The notes beneath the pieces are model-generated. The model was not told the DNA's origin, did no database searches, and saw nothing but the letters and a program-made list of their open reading frames with translations. The position numbers and the translations under genes are program-made. Shown piece after piece: positions 3,122 through 8,125 of a stretch of 12,452 nucleotides of DNA. Position 1 is the first letter of the stretch. Every line of letters starts with the position of its first letter. Source of the stretch: a virus (Duplodnaviria > Heunggongvirae > Uroviricota > Caudoviricetes); IMG/VR virus record IMGVR_UViG_2713896784_000025. One strand, given 5' to 3'.

Positions 3122-3171
3122 NNNNNNNNNNNNNNNNNNNNNNNNNNNNNNNNNNNNNNNNNNNNNNNNNN

Positions 3172-3539
3172 GTTGCGGTTACCACCGCCAGCGTGGAAGC
3201 AACCTTGCGAGTACTGACACCGAACTTACCCGCCAGTTCCTCACACGTTTTAGCCCCATCCTGACCGATAAACTCAATCATCATGTCTGCGGTAACTTTT
3301 TGTTCGACCTCCCCGGTCAGCATATCCTGTGCTTCAGATTTTACTGGCCGCTCTTCGGTTACCCGGGATTCACCTTCGCCAGCCAGAAACCAGGTGTGAC
3401 CAGTTTTATCAACGACGCCATTTATTTTGAGTTCCCACAGCTCGTTGACAGCCTCTTCACGACTGATTCCAAGGCGAGCTGCCACCACATGTGAAGAGGC
3501 TTTTTTCAGTGCTTTCAGTGCGTCAGATACGGTTTCCAT
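3172..3539 (-). CDS. Hypothetical protein with two winged-helix-like segments; N-terminal part, interrupted by N block
   Basis: ATG at 3539 preceded by GGAGG at an 8-nt spacing, immediately downstream of the DnaC-like gene. Two helix-turn-helix-like stretches (VVAARLGISREEAVNELWELKINGVVDKTGHTWFL and MIEFIGQDGAKTCEELAGKFGVSTRKVASTL). The frame is lost across 3122-3171. Confidence 0.55.
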
Positions 3540-3560: not shown

Positions 3561-4307
3561 TTACTTCACAACCCTCATATTGCTGACATTTGGACGCCAG
3601 CTATCCCAGTTAAACGTCACCCATCGACCACCGTTCATGGTCATGCGGTCCATAATCCTCTCACCAAGAAGTGTACTCATTGCGGCATGATTCAGGTTTG
3701 TTAACATCCCGACACTGCACAGTGATGCTGTCCGGCGATCAATTATCTGGTGTAATACCACCTGCTCGTTTTTCGTCTCCCGCTGAACGCCTATTTCATC
3801 CAGGACCAGCAAATCAACACTGCAAAGCTCCTGTAAAAATTTTTCCCCGGATTTGCCGTTGTCGTAGCTGTCATGCAACACGCTCATGACATCAGACACG
3901 GTGACGATAATCACGCTGCGCCCCTTCGCCATCAGCCGGTTACCCATCGCCGCTGCAAGGTGATTTTTCCCGGTGCCGGTTTTACCGCTGAACACAAAAT
4001 TCGTGCACCCGGTCATCAGTTCGTCAGCTATGGATTTGGCCTGGCTCAGCGCGTATTTTTGCCCGTCGTTCTGCACCTGATAATTCGCAAACGAGCATTT
4101 GCTGTGCAGAGGCTGGATGCCCGAACGATTCAGGATTTTTTCCACCCGCAACTGGTGATTCTGGCGGTTAATCTCCTCGCTGCGTTTTCGTCCTTCAGCA
4201 AGTTGCCATTCCCGCCACTCCTCCACCGTCCGGTACGGTGGAACCGACGCCTGTGGTGCAAGTCTGCGAATACGTTCAAGAACCCCGGCTGCCGCAATGT
4301 TTTTCAT
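3561..4307 (-). CDS. DnaC-like replicative helicase loader (IstB-type AAA+ ATPase; YdaV-position), 248 aa
   Basis: ATG at 4307 with GGGGTGA upstream. Walker A FSGKTGTGKNHLAAAMG and Walker B-like DLLVLDEIG; overall resemblance to DnaC as I recall it. Lies 6 nt downstream of the initiator gene stop. Confidence 0.9.
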   Translation of the reverse strand: MKNIAAAGVLERIRRLAPQASVPPYRTVEEWREWQLAEGRKRSEEINRQNHQLRVEKILNRSGIQPLHSKCSFANYQVQNDGQKYALSQAKSIADELMTGCTNFVFSGKTGTGKNHLAAAMGNRLMAKGRSVIIVTVSDVMSVLHDSYDNGKSGEKFLQELCSVDLLVLDEIGVQRETKNEQVVLHQIIDRRTASLCSVGMLTNLNHAAMSTLLGERIMDRMTMNGGRWVTFNWDSWRPNVSNMRVVK

Positions 4308-4313
4308 GCCACA

Positions 4314-5516
4314 TCACCCCCTGAATCCCGGCGGAATTTCGGTATCCGGTTCAGAAATATGATTCACACAACGCTGGTTGTTCGTGCCGCTTACCGGGAG
4401 CAACCAGGGGTTTTCAAAATTCCGGTCCGGCCCAAAAAACGTCGTCGCTCGCTGAACAAATTCCGTTCCCGCTTTCCCGGTCGCCGCCAGGTATCTCGCG
4501 TAACGCCTCACACCATCCAGCATGGTCTCTGGTGGCACCCCCTCGCGCAATCTGGCCTTCCAGGCACTGAAAGCGGATTTCTTCGGGTTTGCCCCAGCAC
4601 GCAACGGGTATTCCCGCCAGACCTGTTCGAACACATCCGGATAATCCACTCGTCCCACAGACTGCCCGGTGCTTTCCGGGACTACCCGATCGGCTTCCCG
4701 CTGAATGGCGGAATCGGCTTCAGGCTGCTGCAGTTGGTGTGATTGCTCCGACCCTGCGGTCATCACCTGCTGCACAGCGCCCGAATCGGCTTCCGGTGTC
4801 GTGCCTGCTGGCTGACCAGGATTGACGGTCTGAACATCCCCTGCCTGGTTCGTGGTGTTTTTTTTGCCATGAACCATAGTGTTTTTGTCCTGTTCCTGTT
4901 CTTTCTCCTGCTCCTGTTCCTGTTCTTGGCTTCGAAGCCCCTTAAAAGCCCCTTCGAAGCCCCTTACCGAATTTCGGCTATTATTCCGCCTCACATCCAG
5001 ATGGAAATCCGTTTTATATCTGTCGTAAAACACTGACAGAAAAGCGTTTTCAGGTAATGATGCATACTCATTCCTGACACCTGCACAACGGTTATCGCCA
5101 GGCTTCAACGTTTCCCCAACCTGCCAGGCTGCCATTTCATGGACCCAGACCATCTCTGCATCATGGTCATAGCTACAAAAACCAGCTTCAACAGCCCTTT
5201 TAAGCCCCTTTGAAGCCCCTTCCAGACCAAGCCCGGTTTCATGAGCAAGGTATAAAACTGGCAGGTAATACAAACCCAGCATATTTGCGTGAGGGGATGT
5301 CATCAGGTAAAAAGCAACAACTTGCGCTTCTGCACCCGCCTTTCTAAGTTCTCTCCCCGTTTCTCCCAGCCAGAATCGCGGAGAAACTTTTGCGTAATCA
5401 CGCATGGCTACCTCATCTGGTGCCGAACCTTCCTCCGGATATAATCTGTGGTTCCCAATCGACAGAACCAGAGGAGGTTCGACATGTATTTTTTGAAAAG
5501 CCTTTATCAGGCTCAT
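4314..5516 (-). CDS. Replication initiator / replisome organiser (lambda O / YdaU position), 400 aa; alternative start at 5408
   Basis: Directly upstream of and nearly abutting the DnaC-like gene. Contains a QEQEQEQEKEQEQ low-complexity linker and a duplicated EGA[F/S]KGL peptide encoded by iteron-like DNA repeats. ATG at 5516 has no clear ribosome-binding site; the ATG at 5408 (MRDYAKV...) follows GAGG. Confidence 0.75.
   Translation of the reverse strand: MSLIKAFQKIHVEPPLVLSIGNHRLYPEEGSAPDEVAMRDYAKVSPRFWLGETGRELRKAGAEAQVVAFYLMTSPHANMLGLYYLPVLYLAHETGLGLEGASKGLKRAVEAGFCSYDHDAEMVWVHEMAAWQVGETLKPGDNRCAGVRNEYASLPENAFLSVFYDRYKTDFHLDVRRNNSRNSVRGFEGAFKGLRSQEQEQEQEKEQEQDKNTMVHGKKNTTNQAGDVQTVNPGQPAGTTPEADSGAVQQVMTAGSEQSHQLQQPEADSAIQREADRVVPESTGQSVGRVDYPDVFEQVWREYPLRAGANPKKSAFSAWKARLREGVPPETMLDGVRRYARYLAATGKAGTEFVQRATTFFGPDRNFENPWLLPVSGTNNQRCVNHISEPDTEIPPGFRG
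4898..4975. repeat. Hexamer tandem repeats (CTGTTC/CTCCTG-type) followed by three direct repeats of GAAGCCCCTT; iteron-like cluster 1
   Basis: 4898-4937 carries about 6-7 hexamer units; (G)AAGCCCCTT copies at 4944-4953, 4956-4964 and 4966-4975. Confidence 0.5.
5193..5222. repeat. Iteron-like cluster 2: two further (G)AAGCCCCTT copies plus a degenerate one
   Basis: AAGCCCCTT at 5203-5211 and GAAGCCCCTT at 5213-5222, about 250 bp from cluster 1 and inside the same gene. Confidence 0.45.
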
Positions 5517-5622
5517 GTATTAAATGTTGCAGCAACAAACCGCTGGTGTAACAGCCCCGAAATGCTCCCGGATTACAGAGCCTGGCTGCGCGCCGAAACA
5601 TACCTTCGTCTCGACATATTGA

Positions 5623-6132
5623 TTAGCGAACTTCAAAAAGAGACTGCATCCATTCATAACCTTCAGGGTATCGACGCTGTTCGCATTCTGGTATCGCGCC
5701 ATAGTGCTCTCTCAATAATTGAAGTGCGTCATCTCTCTTTTTCTGAACTGATTTTCTTGCTTCAACCAGCTCTGGAATCAGCGAATATCCCGCCGGAAGT
5801 GATCCAATACCCACCTCATGTTGACGAGCAGTTACAAGATGTGCCATACAACCAGCGTGCTGGATTGACTCCCTGCTCAGAGGCTGAATGGGATCACTCT
5901 CTGCTGAAGAAATACCAAGATTTGTATAATCCTCAATAAGCCCGGCACACGCTTCTGCATCAGCCAGCTTTATTCTGGTTTCCTTGCGCTGTTCTCTGGC
6001 TGACAAACGCCAGAGCAGCGCATTAGCTTTATGTATCAACCACTCTGCCAGCTCCACATCAGATAAACCGCCACGCCAGATGTGCGGACTGTTTTCGTAA
6101 ACGCTCAGTGTCAATTTTTTGTCATTACTCAT
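5623..6132 (-). CDS. Hypothetical early-right operon protein (about 169 aa)
   Basis: ATG at 6132 (MSNDKKLTLSVYENSPHIWRGG...), 13 nt downstream of the YdaT-like stop. The track's longer version begins at a GTG at 6183. No family recognised. Confidence 0.6.
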   Translation of the reverse strand: MSNDKKLTLSVYENSPHIWRGGLSDVELAEWLIHKANALLWRLSAREQRKETRIKLADAEACAGLIEDYTNLGISSAESDPIQPLSRESIQHAGCMAHLVTARQHEVGIGSLPAGYSLIPELVEARKSVQKKRDDALQLLREHYGAIPECEQRRYPEGYEWMQSLFEVR

Positions 6133-6145
6133 ATTTATTACCCAA

Positions 6146-6571
6146 TTAATGCACAGCCAGAGTGTTTCCTGCCGGGCCACCACGATTCATCTGATCGAAC
6201 AGAACGATCGCTGATGCAACGAAATCATCAATATCTTTCACCAGCCGTTCCTTCGTCTCTACCAACTCCCGAAAATAAGCGGAACTGTGGCTGCGCATTC
6301 GGGCCACCAGCGGAGGCGGCATCGCTTTTTCGATCGCTGGTAACAACGCCTGAATTTTTTTAACCGCATCAGGAGTGTCTTTCTCCACCCAGCGGAAAAT
6401 TTTCTGAGTATTGCGAGCCATGGCTTCCGGATGGCTGTCGTCATACAGTTCCGGGAACGTCATTCCCAGCTCGAAATACGCTTTGGTAATTTTCGCAGCC
6501 GGTACTTTTTCGCCGTCCGGATGCGCCCAGGCATTCATCGCCATGCGGATGTGTTCATGCTTGATTTTCAT
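6146..6571 (-). CDS. YdaT-like protein (Rac prophage ydaT position), 141 aa
   Basis: ATG at 6571 with GGAG 8 nt upstream; its first 17 nt overlap the end of the Cro-like gene. Begins MKIKHEHI..., which matches my recollection of E. coli YdaT in start, length and position, but this is unverified. Confidence 0.65.
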   Translation of the reverse strand: MKIKHEHIRMAMNAWAHPDGEKVPAAKITKAYFELGMTFPELYDDSHPEAMARNTQKIFRWVEKDTPDAVKKIQALLPAIEKAMPPPLVARMRSHSSAYFRELVETKERLVKDIDDFVASAIVLFDQMNRGGPAGNTLAVH

Positions 6572-6827
6572 GAATCAACTCCGGCGCATTTGATGTGTTA
6601 ACCTTACATCCAACAGGTAAACCGTCGGTTGGGTTAGGATAAATATCTGGGCGGATTTCATGCGGGGTAACTTCCCACTTCATTAGTTGGCATAACGGAA
6701 TTACCTGCTTTGGGGGAACGCCAAAGCTAAACCATTGCCAAACAGTCTGTTGAGCGACCCCCATATAACGACCTATTTCAGCCTGAGTGTATTTCTGCCT
6801 AATTTTTTCGCGAGTGCTATCTAGCAT
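6555..6827 (-). CDS. Cro-like / YdaS-type HTH regulator, 90 aa
   Basis: ATG at 6827 with strong AGAGGAGGG upstream. HTH segment QAEIGRYMGVAQQTVWQW; transcribed divergently from the repressor gene. Confidence 0.8.
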   Translation of the reverse strand: MLDSTREKIRQKYTQAEIGRYMGVAQQTVWQWFSFGVPPKQVIPLCQLMKWEVTPHEIRPDIYPNPTDGLPVGCKVNTSNAPELIHENQA

Positions 6828-6935: not shown

Positions 6936-7337
6936 ATGATGAGCGCCCTAGAAGTATCTATGTACAGAATCAGCAAGCTTCTTCAGGAAACTGGATGGAG
7001 CCAGGCTGAGCTTGCCCGTAGAATTGGTGTGACACAACAAACTGTTCAACAATGGGTCAGCGGTAAGGCTACACCTAAAGCCTCAAGTTTGGATAAACTG
7101 GTTGAGGTTTCAGGGCATCCATTGCATTGGTTTTTATTGCCTCCTGAAGAGTGTGAGCAAATTTTCACCCCTGACACGATGAAAATTGGTCCTCGCCAAC
7201 GCGAACTGCTCCAAGCTTTTAGTGCGTTTCCTGAGGAAGACCAAGAAAAAATGCTTCAAGAAATCAAAGACAAGAAAAAATCAATGGAAGAAACCATTGC
7301 TAGGTGGCTGGCGGCACAAAAAAGCCGCCGGGCGTGA
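6936..7337 (+). CDS. Prophage repressor, short XRE-family HTH protein (DicA/RacR-like; possibly PaaR2-like), 133 aa
   Basis: HTH WSQAELARRIGVTQQTVQQWVSG; C-terminal tail (PRQRELLQAFSAFPEEDQEKMLQEIKDKK...) is laid out like DicA as I recall it; no S24 peptidase domain. No clear ribosome-binding site at 6936, so possibly leaderless; 6960 is an alternative ATG. Confidence 0.85.
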   Translation: MMSALEVSMYRISKLLQETGWSQAELARRIGVTQQTVQQWVSGKATPKASSLDKLVEVSGHPLHWFLLPPEECEQIFTPDTMKIGPRQRELLQAFSAFPEEDQEKMLQEIKDKKKSMEETIARWLAAQKSRRA

Positions 7338-7364: not shown

Positions 7365-7556
7365 ATGGGTACAGCCCTTTCTCCGATAGTTTCAGAATTC
7401 GAAACTACCGAACAAGAAAACAGTTACAACGAATGGTTGCGCACTAAAGTAACGTCAAGCCTTGCAGACACTCGCCCCGCAATTCCACATGACGAGGTAA
7501 TGGCTGAAATGGAAAATCTTATTGCTCAAATTGCTGTAACTAACAAGAGCGAGTAA
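7365..7556 (+). CDS. paaA2: Type II antitoxin partner of ParE (PaaA2-like), 63 aa
   Basis: GGAG ribosome-binding site; stop TAA overlaps the ATG of the downstream toxin (TAATG). Size and sequence (SEFETTEQENSYNEWLRTKVTSSLADTRPAIPHDEV) fit my recollection of PaaA2; symbol is tentative. Confidence 0.7.
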   Translation: MGTALSPIVSEFETTEQENSYNEWLRTKVTSSLADTRPAIPHDEVMAEMENLIAQIAVTNKSE

Positions 7557-7843
7557 TGTTACCCATTTTATGGCTACCGTCTGCTCGCGATGATTTGCGC
7601 CAGATCATAACTTACATCGCCAAGGAGAACCCACCGGCAGCACGTAGACTAAAAATACGCATTGAAACATCGGTATTACCTCTATCTGAGCATCCGTACT
7701 TATATCCACCAAGCGAACGGGTTTCTGGATTGAGAGAGATCGTGACCCACCCTAACTACATAATCCTGTACAGAGTAGCTGCTTCAAGCATTGAGATTGT
7801 AAGCGTGACACATTCTCGGCGACAATTTCCCTTCTCTATCTGA
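7556..7843 (+). CDS. parE: ParE/RelE-superfamily toxin (ParE2-like), 95 aa
   Basis: MLPILWLPSARDDLRQIITYIAKENPPAARRL...LSEHPYLYPPSERVSGLREIVTHPNYIILYRV: the characteristic ParE N-terminal helix and core. Translationally coupled to the antitoxin. Confidence 0.85.
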   Translation: MLPILWLPSARDDLRQIITYIAKENPPAARRLKIRIETSVLPLSEHPYLYPPSERVSGLREIVTHPNYIILYRVAASSIEIVSVTHSRRQFPFSI

Positions 7844-7933: not shown

Positions 7934-8125
7934 TAGATTACATACACCAACCACCCACCCCGCCCCACAGAACGCCGGGCAATACTTCGAGTTACCAAGC
8001 AGTGGTCAGGGGGTAAGTAGCCAGCCCGAGGCGTATGAACATGACGGCAGGGTTCAACTTTAATAACTATGCAGCNNNNNNNNNNNNNNNNNNNNNNNNN
8101 NNNNNNNNNNNNNNNNNNNNNNNNN

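Follow-up and report, generated by a model that had tools for sequence, protein, structure and literature searches.

What five copies of a 9-bp word are doing inside a phage replication gene is the question raised by this locus. The stretch of DNA analysed here, referred to as the window (12,452 nucleotides; IMG/VR record IMGVR_UViG_2713896784_000025), is the early-right region of the lambdoid prophage Sp4 of Escherichia coli O157:H7 Sakai, which it matches at 100%. Its presumed initiator gene, ECs_1073, contains two clusters of the word, and one of these is directly followed by a tandem run of hexamers. A first-pass annotation made from the letters had suggested that an origin might be embedded in this gene. 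Our comparison of the repeats across related phages and prophages suggests that the arrays of AAGGGGCTT, the coding-strand form of the word, and the adjacent hexamer run are probably the replication origin of Sp4, lying within the gene of its own initiator. The features central to this reading are the following.

4314–5405, minus strand: initiator gene ECs_1073 of prophage Sp4, 363 amino acids (aa), from its open reading frame (ORF) and translation; RefSeq label 'phage replication protein'
5202–5221, minus strand: repeat cluster 1, exact 9-mers at 5202–5210 and 5213–5221; encodes EGASKGL, the N-terminal half of the predicted recognition helix (helix 61–73)
4935–4965, minus strand: repeat cluster 2, exact 9-mers at 4935, 4946 and 4957; encodes GFEGAFKGL in a predicted disordered linker
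4926–4934, minus strand: invariant junction linking cluster 2 to the hexamer run; coding strand CGAAGCCAA, which includes the half-repeat GAAGCC
4881–4928, minus strand: tandem hexamer run (CARGAR)n, encoding QEQEQEQEKEQEQDKN; coding strand free of T; directly follows cluster 2

ECs_1073 is regarded as an initiator from its gene context and from its match to PHROG 1701, 'DnaD-like helicase loader' (E 9e-149); the PHROG clusters that it matches also carry the label 'replication initiation protein', these names being cluster labels only. No Pfam-A family was matched at E<=0.01. An exhaustive HMMER search with aa 1–145 recovered 4083 clusters (50% identity) at E<=0.001, and 2387 remained at E<=1e-10. 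ECs_1073 is a member of a large initiator family that has neither a curated description nor a Pfam model. Homologues begin with MRDY, and the ATG of ECs_1073 was therefore set at 5405. The program-made ORF runs 37 codons upstream of this start and covers 5406–5516 on the minus strand.

The 9-mer AAGCCCCTT is present in five exact copies on the plus strand, starting at 4935, 4946, 4957, 5202 and 5213. Copies are spaced by 11 bp within each cluster and the clusters lie 256 bp apart, in agreement with the first-pass annotation, which had placed five copies in two clusters about 250 bp apart in the coding sequence. The mean number of exact copies expected by chance is 0.14, and none of 200 dinucleotide-preserving shuffles reached five. 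When one mismatch was allowed, the sole additional match in the 12.4-kb window was at 3494, which is the chance level. A further in-register unit at 5191–5199 matches at 6 of 9 bases only, and a leading G precedes the 9-mer in three of the five copies. Relative to the ATG, AAGGGGCTT lies at +184, +195, +440, +451 and +462. The peptides encoded by the repeats are EGASKGL (aa 62–68) and EGAFKGL (aa 151–157), and the duplicated EGA[F/S]KGL peptide noticed at first reading is thus present at these two sites. The junction and the last 9-mer together form the palindrome GGCTTCGAAGCC (4928–4939). The Ser codon of the junction is AGC in 62/62 homologues, and information content is 2.0 bits at AAGCCA.

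Protein-guided scans covered 79 genomic loci (Gamma- and Betaproteobacteria, with some metagenome bins) and 80 viral contigs, and the comparison set consisted of 69 homologues at <85% aa identity from Gamma- and Betaproteobacteria with GC contents of 39–68%. The 9-mer recurs in every lineage examined at the same two places, ~+184/+195 and ~+428 to +462. The median third-position entropy is 0.56 bits for codons of the repeats and 1.74 bits for 39 other conserved four- or six-fold codons (Mann-Whitney p = 3e-6), for which the entropies across the 69 homologues are 1.1–1.95 bits. The two-fold codons of the repeats are invariant (GAA 58/58, AAG 60/60 and 56/56), compared to a median of 0.91 bits elsewhere (p = 0.002). 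In cluster 1, the codons are GAA in 58/58, Gly GGG in 61/63, Ala GCT in 49/64, AAG in 60/60, Gly GGG in 53/63 and Leu CTT in 60/67; in cluster 2, they are Ala GCC in 46/46, Pro CCT in 48/52 and Pro CCC in 50/56. The third base of the Ser codon between the two 9-mers belongs to the spacer and is free (1.75 bits). The aa identity of the diverged homologues ranges from 46 to 79%, which argues against recent ancestry as an artefactual source of the synonymous conservation. The same pattern is seen at close range: 19 distinct E. coli-type sequences have substitutions in 58 columns, of which 1 lies within the 45 repeat bases when ~5.5 would be expected (binomial about 0.02), and variation reaches the edges of the repeats, spacer bases included. 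Collectively, these comparisons indicate that the repeats are conserved as DNA and not as protein.

The orientation of cluster 2 provides a further line of evidence. At least one copy with no more than one mismatch is found in cluster 2 of 69/69 diverged homologues, and at least two copies in 60/69. Relative to cluster 1, cluster 2 is inverted in 47/69, direct in 9 (the window included) and mixed in 13. The direct (+/+) arrangement of the window is therefore the minority state, and most relatives have an inverted cluster 2. Inversion changes the encoded peptide from EGASKGL to EAPSKPL, a non-conservative replacement of Gly by Pro, and the double-stranded word is kept. Since the peptide is altered and the duplex word is retained, a reader of duplex DNA explains the pattern, and a peptide or RNA motif does not. 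In two complete related genomes, all exact copies of the word lie in or just upstream of the initiator gene (5/5 in Acinetobacter phage B1251, 45 kb; 3/3 in phage Fraca, 44 kb).

Some relatives carry further copies upstream of the gene. In phage B1251 (L004/L172), extra 9-mers are found at -38 and -27 from the initiator ATG, and one or two extra copies upstream of the start are present in Acinetobacter relatives and also at L016, L019, L027, L031, L033 and L050. The copies in the Acinetobacter relatives could be a third cluster or an operator. Upstream copies are not present in the window, nor in most relatives.

Tandem Repeats Finder reports TCCTGT x 6.3 at 4888–4925, adjoining cluster 2, and thereby bears out the earlier observation of a hexamer run encoding a QEQEQE linker beside the repeats. 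The position of the run is conserved across the family, and its length varies from 6 to 32 residues (median 12). In E. coli-type copies, insertions and deletions in the run are multiples of 6. Relative to Sakai, O157:H7 TW14359 has one unit more and three other strains have one unit fewer; the hexamer copy number thus differs among near-identical E. coli prophages, as had been predicted for a slippage site. A shift of reading frame within the run, giving GAGAGA, RSRS or RNRN with the ORF remaining open, is seen at 6/69 genomic loci and in ~5% of 238 unbiased family representatives. At the loci inspected, the shifted reading goes with an 11-bp difference in the number of repeat units; some cases are possibly assembly errors. 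Examples are L042, L053, L065, L073, L074 and L082, and proteins P0132, P0145, P0146, P0188, P0191 and P0036, among others. The coding strand of the run lacks T and so has no stop codon in any frame, and the run may therefore permit 11-bp repeat units to be gained or lost without truncation of the protein.

No synonymous constraint was detected in the QE run, where CAA/CAG and GAA/GAG ratios are like those in the rest of the genes. Its DNA pattern could therefore follow from the QE peptide alone, and we make no claim of DNA-level selection on that basis. The copy-number variation, the changes of frame and the T-free strand argue that the DNA repeat goes beyond what the peptide requires, or at least that the peptide has a high tolerance for change. 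Across 67 homologues, the excess in the run is +0.25 to +0.30 for purines and only +0.04 to +0.09 for AT. Its duplex stability in the window is unremarkable, with a local z of at most about +1. The corresponding runs are AT-rich in SPP1 and in low-GC relatives, where they encode KDKDKD. We propose that the hexamer run is a slippage-prone linker and a candidate unwinding zone. Just past it lies one further element.

4846–4876, strand not assigned: inverted repeat with 12-bp stems, TGGTTCGTGG...CCATGAACCA, with T/A runs; an A/T-rich patch

This inverted repeat would form a terminator-like hairpin on the plus strand, antisense to ECs_1073, and is locally the least stable segment on that side of the gene (z about +0.7 relative to the window). 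It lies within a module common to Tritos-type phages, is not conserved in the wider family, and is a possible accessory origin element. Elsewhere, matches to internal promoters and terminators were at chance level only.

The predicted structure of ECs_1073 places the repeats relative to its domains.

4971–5405, minus strand: N-terminal domain, aa 1–145, a predicted winged helix-turn-helix (AlphaFold2)
4317–4880, minus strand: C-terminal module, comprising the remainder of the linker, a helical domain and a DnaT-like tail (aa 340–363, 4317–4388); presumed contact to the helicase loader

AlphaFold2 predicts a confident winged helix at aa 20–140, with the topology H1-S1-H2-H3-S2-wing-S3 and with structural matches to known DNA-binding winged helices. 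The predicted local distance difference test (pLDDT) score is <50 for aa 145–175, and cluster 2 and the hexamer run encode aa 147–175, which points to a disordered interdomain linker. The first-pass annotation had likened the placement of the repeats in linker-coding DNA to that in lambda; this applies to cluster 2 and the hexamer run, and does not apply to cluster 1, which codes for the predicted recognition helix 61–73. The C-terminal tail NHISEPDTEIPPGFRG is weakly like the C-terminus of DnaT (PDB 6aep, 2ru8 and 9zbt; NCBIfam DnaT; E 0.002–0.07), and this weak match was the only one obtained when ECs_1073 was compared by sequence to solved structures. The tail may be the contact to the DnaB/DnaC machinery, and its resemblance to DnaT probably accounts for the 'primosomal protein I' annotations in related phages.

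The two halves of the gene have different relatives. The N-terminal half has diverged DNA relatives (64–77% identity) in Klebsiella, Shigella, Acinetobacter, Ralstonia and E. coli phages, those in Shigella being the Stx (Shiga toxin) phages 75/02 and POCJ13. From ~4885 downstream, the DNA is 91–92% identical to that of seven E. coli phages whose initiators have a different N-domain, and the mosaic junction at ~4885 coincides with the end of the hexamer run. In phage Tritos, for example, the C-terminal module has 92% DNA identity, the N-domain is different and AAGGGGCTT is not present.

1499–2569 of the Tritos locus (L171), minus strand: Tritos initiator, with repeat clusters at 2143–2181 and 2403–2441 and a tandem repeat at 2100–2135

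The Tritos repeats consist of the word GTCACG at 10–11-bp spacing in two clusters 260 bp apart; after the second comes a 12-nt tandem repeat that encodes DKDTDKDTD, giving the same layout as in ECs_1073. Conversely, the ECs_1073-type N-domain and its repeats are found with a DnaC-like loader in the window, with a primase-helicase in Fraca and with PF09524 C-termini in many others. The N-domain and the repeats therefore appear, from these gene comparisons, to travel together whatever the C-terminal module or helicase partner. Swapping of the C-terminal module with retention of the N-domain and the repeats is familiar from lambdoid phages, in which the origin remains with the half of the initiator that binds DNA.

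The word is also found beyond this family. When viral contigs were scanned for exact matches to the phased pair AAGGGGCTTNNAAGGGGCTT, at least 80 loci were obtained. Among the matches listed, 48 are ECs_1073-type genes, and ~25 of the other 32 lie in ORFs of 235–275 aa that begin with MAKRFTDTEKWKKPF... on low-GC contigs (30–42% GC). These low-GC loci fall among L174–L253, for example L187 (3314–4057, minus strand), L180, L191, L175 and L251. Their ORFs have the pair at ~+47/+58 and an inverted pair at ~+345/+356, after which comes a dipeptide repeat (KD, MD, SN or GN). The ORF of L187 overlaps the start of, and is followed by, a BT4734-like/PriCT primase-type gene and then an SSB (single-stranded DNA-binding protein) gene, neighbours that place it in a replication module. 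The low-GC N-termini have no detectable similarity to ECs_1073 (hhalign probability 0.2–0.5%), no Pfam match and only weak PHROG matches. Tritos differs in both the repeat word and the N-domain, whereas the low-GC initiators keep the 9-mer despite a dissimilar N-domain. Either these initiators are remote homologues with a frozen specificity, or the word is read by something other than the N-domain. A more speculative idea, which we think doubtful, is that the 9-bp word and the tandem hexamer linker form a portable and very ancient origin cassette shared by initiators with unrelated-looking DNA-binding domains. Such a cassette may range from proteobacterial prophages (39–68% GC) to low-GC phages, probably of Bacteroidota.

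If the repeats are the origin, replication of Sp4 might begin as follows. The N-terminal winged-helix domain of ECs_1073 would bind the 9-bp repeats, and their 11-bp spacing, about one helical turn, would place the bound proteins on one face of the DNA. We propose cluster 2 as the core initiator-binding array. Cluster 1, 256 bp upstream, would be auxiliary, and binding at both clusters could loop the intervening DNA. The resulting nucleoprotein complex would stress the purine-rich, T-free hexamer run and the A-rich inverted repeat (4846–4928), where the strands are presumed to open. The C-terminal module of the initiator would then recruit the DnaC-like loader ECs_1074 together with host DnaB. 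The gene for this putative loader is the next one downstream.

3561–4307, minus strand: ECs_1074, DnaC/IstB-type AAA+ helicase loader gene, directly downstream of ECs_1073

ECs_1074 matches Pfam PF01695 with E 3.9e-19, passing the cut-off, and PHROG 50, 'DnaC-like helicase loader', with E 2.9e-83.

An origin embedded in an initiator gene is a well-known arrangement; what is new here is an undescribed initiator family and an unusually conserved 9-bp repeat. Three features go beyond the routine: a repeat pair that codes for the recognition helix, an orientation that flips between lineages, and a word common to unrelated-looking initiators. A repeat pair that encodes the recognition helix of its presumed reader could lock protein and site together, which might account for the near-frozen state of both across bacterial classes. 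In lambda, ori lies inside gene O and consists of four iterons and a 39-bp AT-rich zone, located between the N-terminal DNA-binding and the C-terminal P-binding domains, and the O protein tolerates in-frame deletions in the AT-rich zone (PMC6022878). Sp4 resembles lambda in having the candidate origin in the initiator gene at a flexible linker between domains, with a repeat array followed by an opening zone (a candidate one in Sp4). In both, the DNA-binding module and the repeats stay together and the C-terminal module is exchangeable. The iterons differ: lambda has four 18-bp inverted repeats in a single cluster, each bound by one O dimer, whereas the Sp4 words are asymmetric, 9 bp long and spaced by 11 bp, and form two clusters separated by 256 bp; the run of Sp4 is purine-rich rather than AT-rich. 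The partner of ECs_1073 would be a DnaC/IstB-type ATPase in place of lambda P, and the lack of a Pfam match places ECs_1073 outside the lambda O family model (Phage_rep_O). Nor did ECs_1073 match the Pfam replisome-organizer N-terminal families, and NCBIfam returned only the weak DnaT tail.

Similar arrangements are known from other phages. In the Bacillus phage SPP1, oriL lies inside gene 38 and contains direct repeats bound by G38P as well as an AT-rich unwinding element (PMC6316719). In the gene 38 sequence, the linker-coding part carries a 16-nt direct repeat and, after it, a 9-nt tandem that is AT-rich and encodes NNNDNNENNDNK. As in Sp4, the repeats are in the initiator's own gene and a tandem repeat codes for a low-complexity linker between the N- and C-domains. 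The C-terminal domain of G38P is PF09524, which is also that of many ECs_1073-type relatives; no sequence similarity was detected between the N-domains of G38P and ECs_1073. The SPP1 system (G38P organizer, G39P loader, G40P helicase) differs in its repeat sequence and in having a tandem repeat that is clearly AT-rich. It also has oriR, another copy of the origin at a distance of 13 kb; neither the window nor the two complete related genomes contain such a second site. The origins of TP901-1 and Tuc2009 are direct repeats that lie in the replisome-organizer genes and are bound by the organizers themselves; P335-group origins cloned in trans give phage-encoded resistance (PMC8965321). In r1t, the organizer ORF11 occurs with a DnaC-like loader, ORF12, as ECs_1073 does with ECs_1074 (PMC8965321). 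The likeness to the lactococcal P335 group (TP901-1 ORF13, Tuc2009 Rep2009) lies in organizer-bound repeats in the organizer's own gene, binding by ECs_1073 being predicted; the group differs in its Gram-positive hosts and its repeats, and is likened here at the level of general description. The iterons of plasmids (RepE of F, pi of R6K) are usually 17–22 bp and lie outside the rep gene, and the Rep proteins of iteron plasmids have two winged-helix domains. ECs_1073, in contrast, has one predicted winged-helix domain and no Rep-family Pfam match.

Several observations weigh against the assignment of the repeats and the hexamer run as an origin. No strong AT-rich unwinding element was found beside the repeats, either in the nearest-neighbour stability of the window or in AT and purine profiles of the 67 homologues. 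The run is just 4–9 percentage points above the AT content of the gene average, with a mild signal at the run and at 4980–5060, and the least stable 40-mers of the window are elsewhere, in unrelated AT-rich genes at 1.1–2.2 kb. The segment 4846–4928 is consequently a candidate opening zone that we put forward with low confidence, and nowhere is the origin model weaker. Because cluster 1 coincides with a helix under structural constraint, its conservation is in part that of the protein, and gene conversion from cluster 2 could also add to the conservation of its synonymous sites. The presence of the same 9-mer with a dissimilar N-domain in the low-GC initiators means that the reader of the repeats could be other than the winged helix of ECs_1073. 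Searches of the literature available to the analysis found nothing on ECs_1073, on the 9-mer as a phage site or on the origin of this family; they likewise returned nothing relevant on the origins of non-lambda Stx phage replication modules or those of phages of enterohaemorrhagic E. coli (EHEC).

Conservation at the DNA level shows that the repeats are a cis-acting site and does not show its kind. They might be duplex binding sites of the initiator or another protein with a regulatory function, the true origin being elsewhere. Such sites could serve autorepression by an intragenic roadblock, copy control by pairing of the clusters, or a switch from theta to rolling-circle replication like that proposed for the G38P-bound second site of SPP1, where the bound initiator is proposed to stall forks (PMC6316719). 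Two separated clusters would suit looping or handcuffing, there is no clear AT-rich element adjoining them, and the two extra copies just upstream of the start in Acinetobacter relatives have an operator-like position. However, these upstream copies are missing from the window and from most relatives, and no other copy of the word is found in the window or in the two complete related genomes, which leaves no second site to serve as the origin. The location in linker-coding DNA followed by a tandem repeat also mirrors validated origins (PMC6022878, PMC6316719). We therefore regard a purely regulatory site as unlikely. Still less probable is that the repeats and the hexamer segment are mainly a recombination joint for swapping N- and C-terminal initiator modules, a common stretch at the domain boundary that persists because mosaics form in it. 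The mosaic junction with Tritos-type phages does fall at the end of the run (~4885), and the same N-domain is joined to several C-terminal modules right after it. This would leave unexplained the near-fixed synonymous sites of cluster 1, which lies 256 bp away inside the N-domain, as well as the strict 11-bp spacing and the retention of the word in either orientation. The linker repeat of Tritos is different, so the sequence at the joint is not common to the two, and exchange at this boundary would be expected anyway if an origin and its DNA-binding domain must stay together.

It is also highly improbable that the element acts in mRNA or single-stranded DNA by affecting translation or stability. 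Inverted clusters, present in most lineages, could pair over about 20 nt, and this +/- arrangement is the commonest. Each cluster can form a local hairpin through TTCGAA palindromes, and the RNA of 4880–5240 folds better than shuffled sequences (z = -2.8), with local hairpins at both clusters. This z value, however, reflects the local palindromes, and the orientation data give no support: the direct arrangement, in the window and other enterobacterial lineages, cannot pair, yet the word and the synonymous constraint are kept. A reader of single strands would not accept an inverted cluster, since its RNA word becomes the complement. The central base of the palindrome is free (1.75 bits), and no Rfam family was matched. 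Finally, the DNA repeats could be a by-product of the duplicated EGA[F/S]KGL peptide and a low-complexity QE linker. EGASKGL does lie within a conserved helix, and synonymous codons in the QE run are used as Q and E codons are elsewhere. Against this, the synonymous sites in the 9-mers are near-fixed across hosts of 39–68% GC, the linker peptide varies (EGAFKGL, EAPSKPL, QAPSKPL) and the DNA word does not, the linker is predicted to be disordered, and the hexamer DNA persists in other reading frames. A by-product of this sort is extremely improbable, and the data all but exclude that the repeats arose purely at the protein level. A G-quadruplex or DNA curvature was also considered and dropped; most relatives have just two G-runs per cluster, and the conservation is base-specific.

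If the repeats and the hexamer run are indeed the origin, they provide a concrete origin for Sp4-type prophages, which are found in 469/5426 complete E. coli genomes, mostly O157 and other EHEC. The assignment would extend to a large unannotated initiator family (the 2387 clusters at E<=1e-10, with no Pfam model) and would supply an annotation rule for origins in thousands of proteobacterial phages and prophages, namely phased AAGGGGCTT pairs followed by a hexamer run. The fragment could be used as a decoy against such phages, comparable to lactococcal phage-encoded resistance (PMC8965321), or as a phage-derived replicon part. A coding sequence with a second, non-protein code would also bear on recoding, on codon-based selection tests and on the interpretation of 'silent' variants.

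The surroundings of the gene are those of a lambdoid early region. Upstream of ECs_1073 are a YdaT/CII-like gene, a Cro-like gene and a repressor. Between the initiator and the cII/YdaT-like gene, an 'ECs1072 family' gene is encoded on the opposite strand (5448–5939, plus strand). Masked bases occur in the window as three runs of exactly 50 N, at 722–771, 3122–3171 and 8076–8125; the one at 3122–3171 falls within ECs_1075, whose ORF is listed in pieces as a result. A Rac-like immunity region comprises the YdaT/CII-like gene at 6146–6571, the Cro-like gene at 6555–6827 and the divergent repressor at 6936–7337; next to it the Sakai annotation has a RelE/ParE-type 'plasmid stabilization' gene at 7556–7843.

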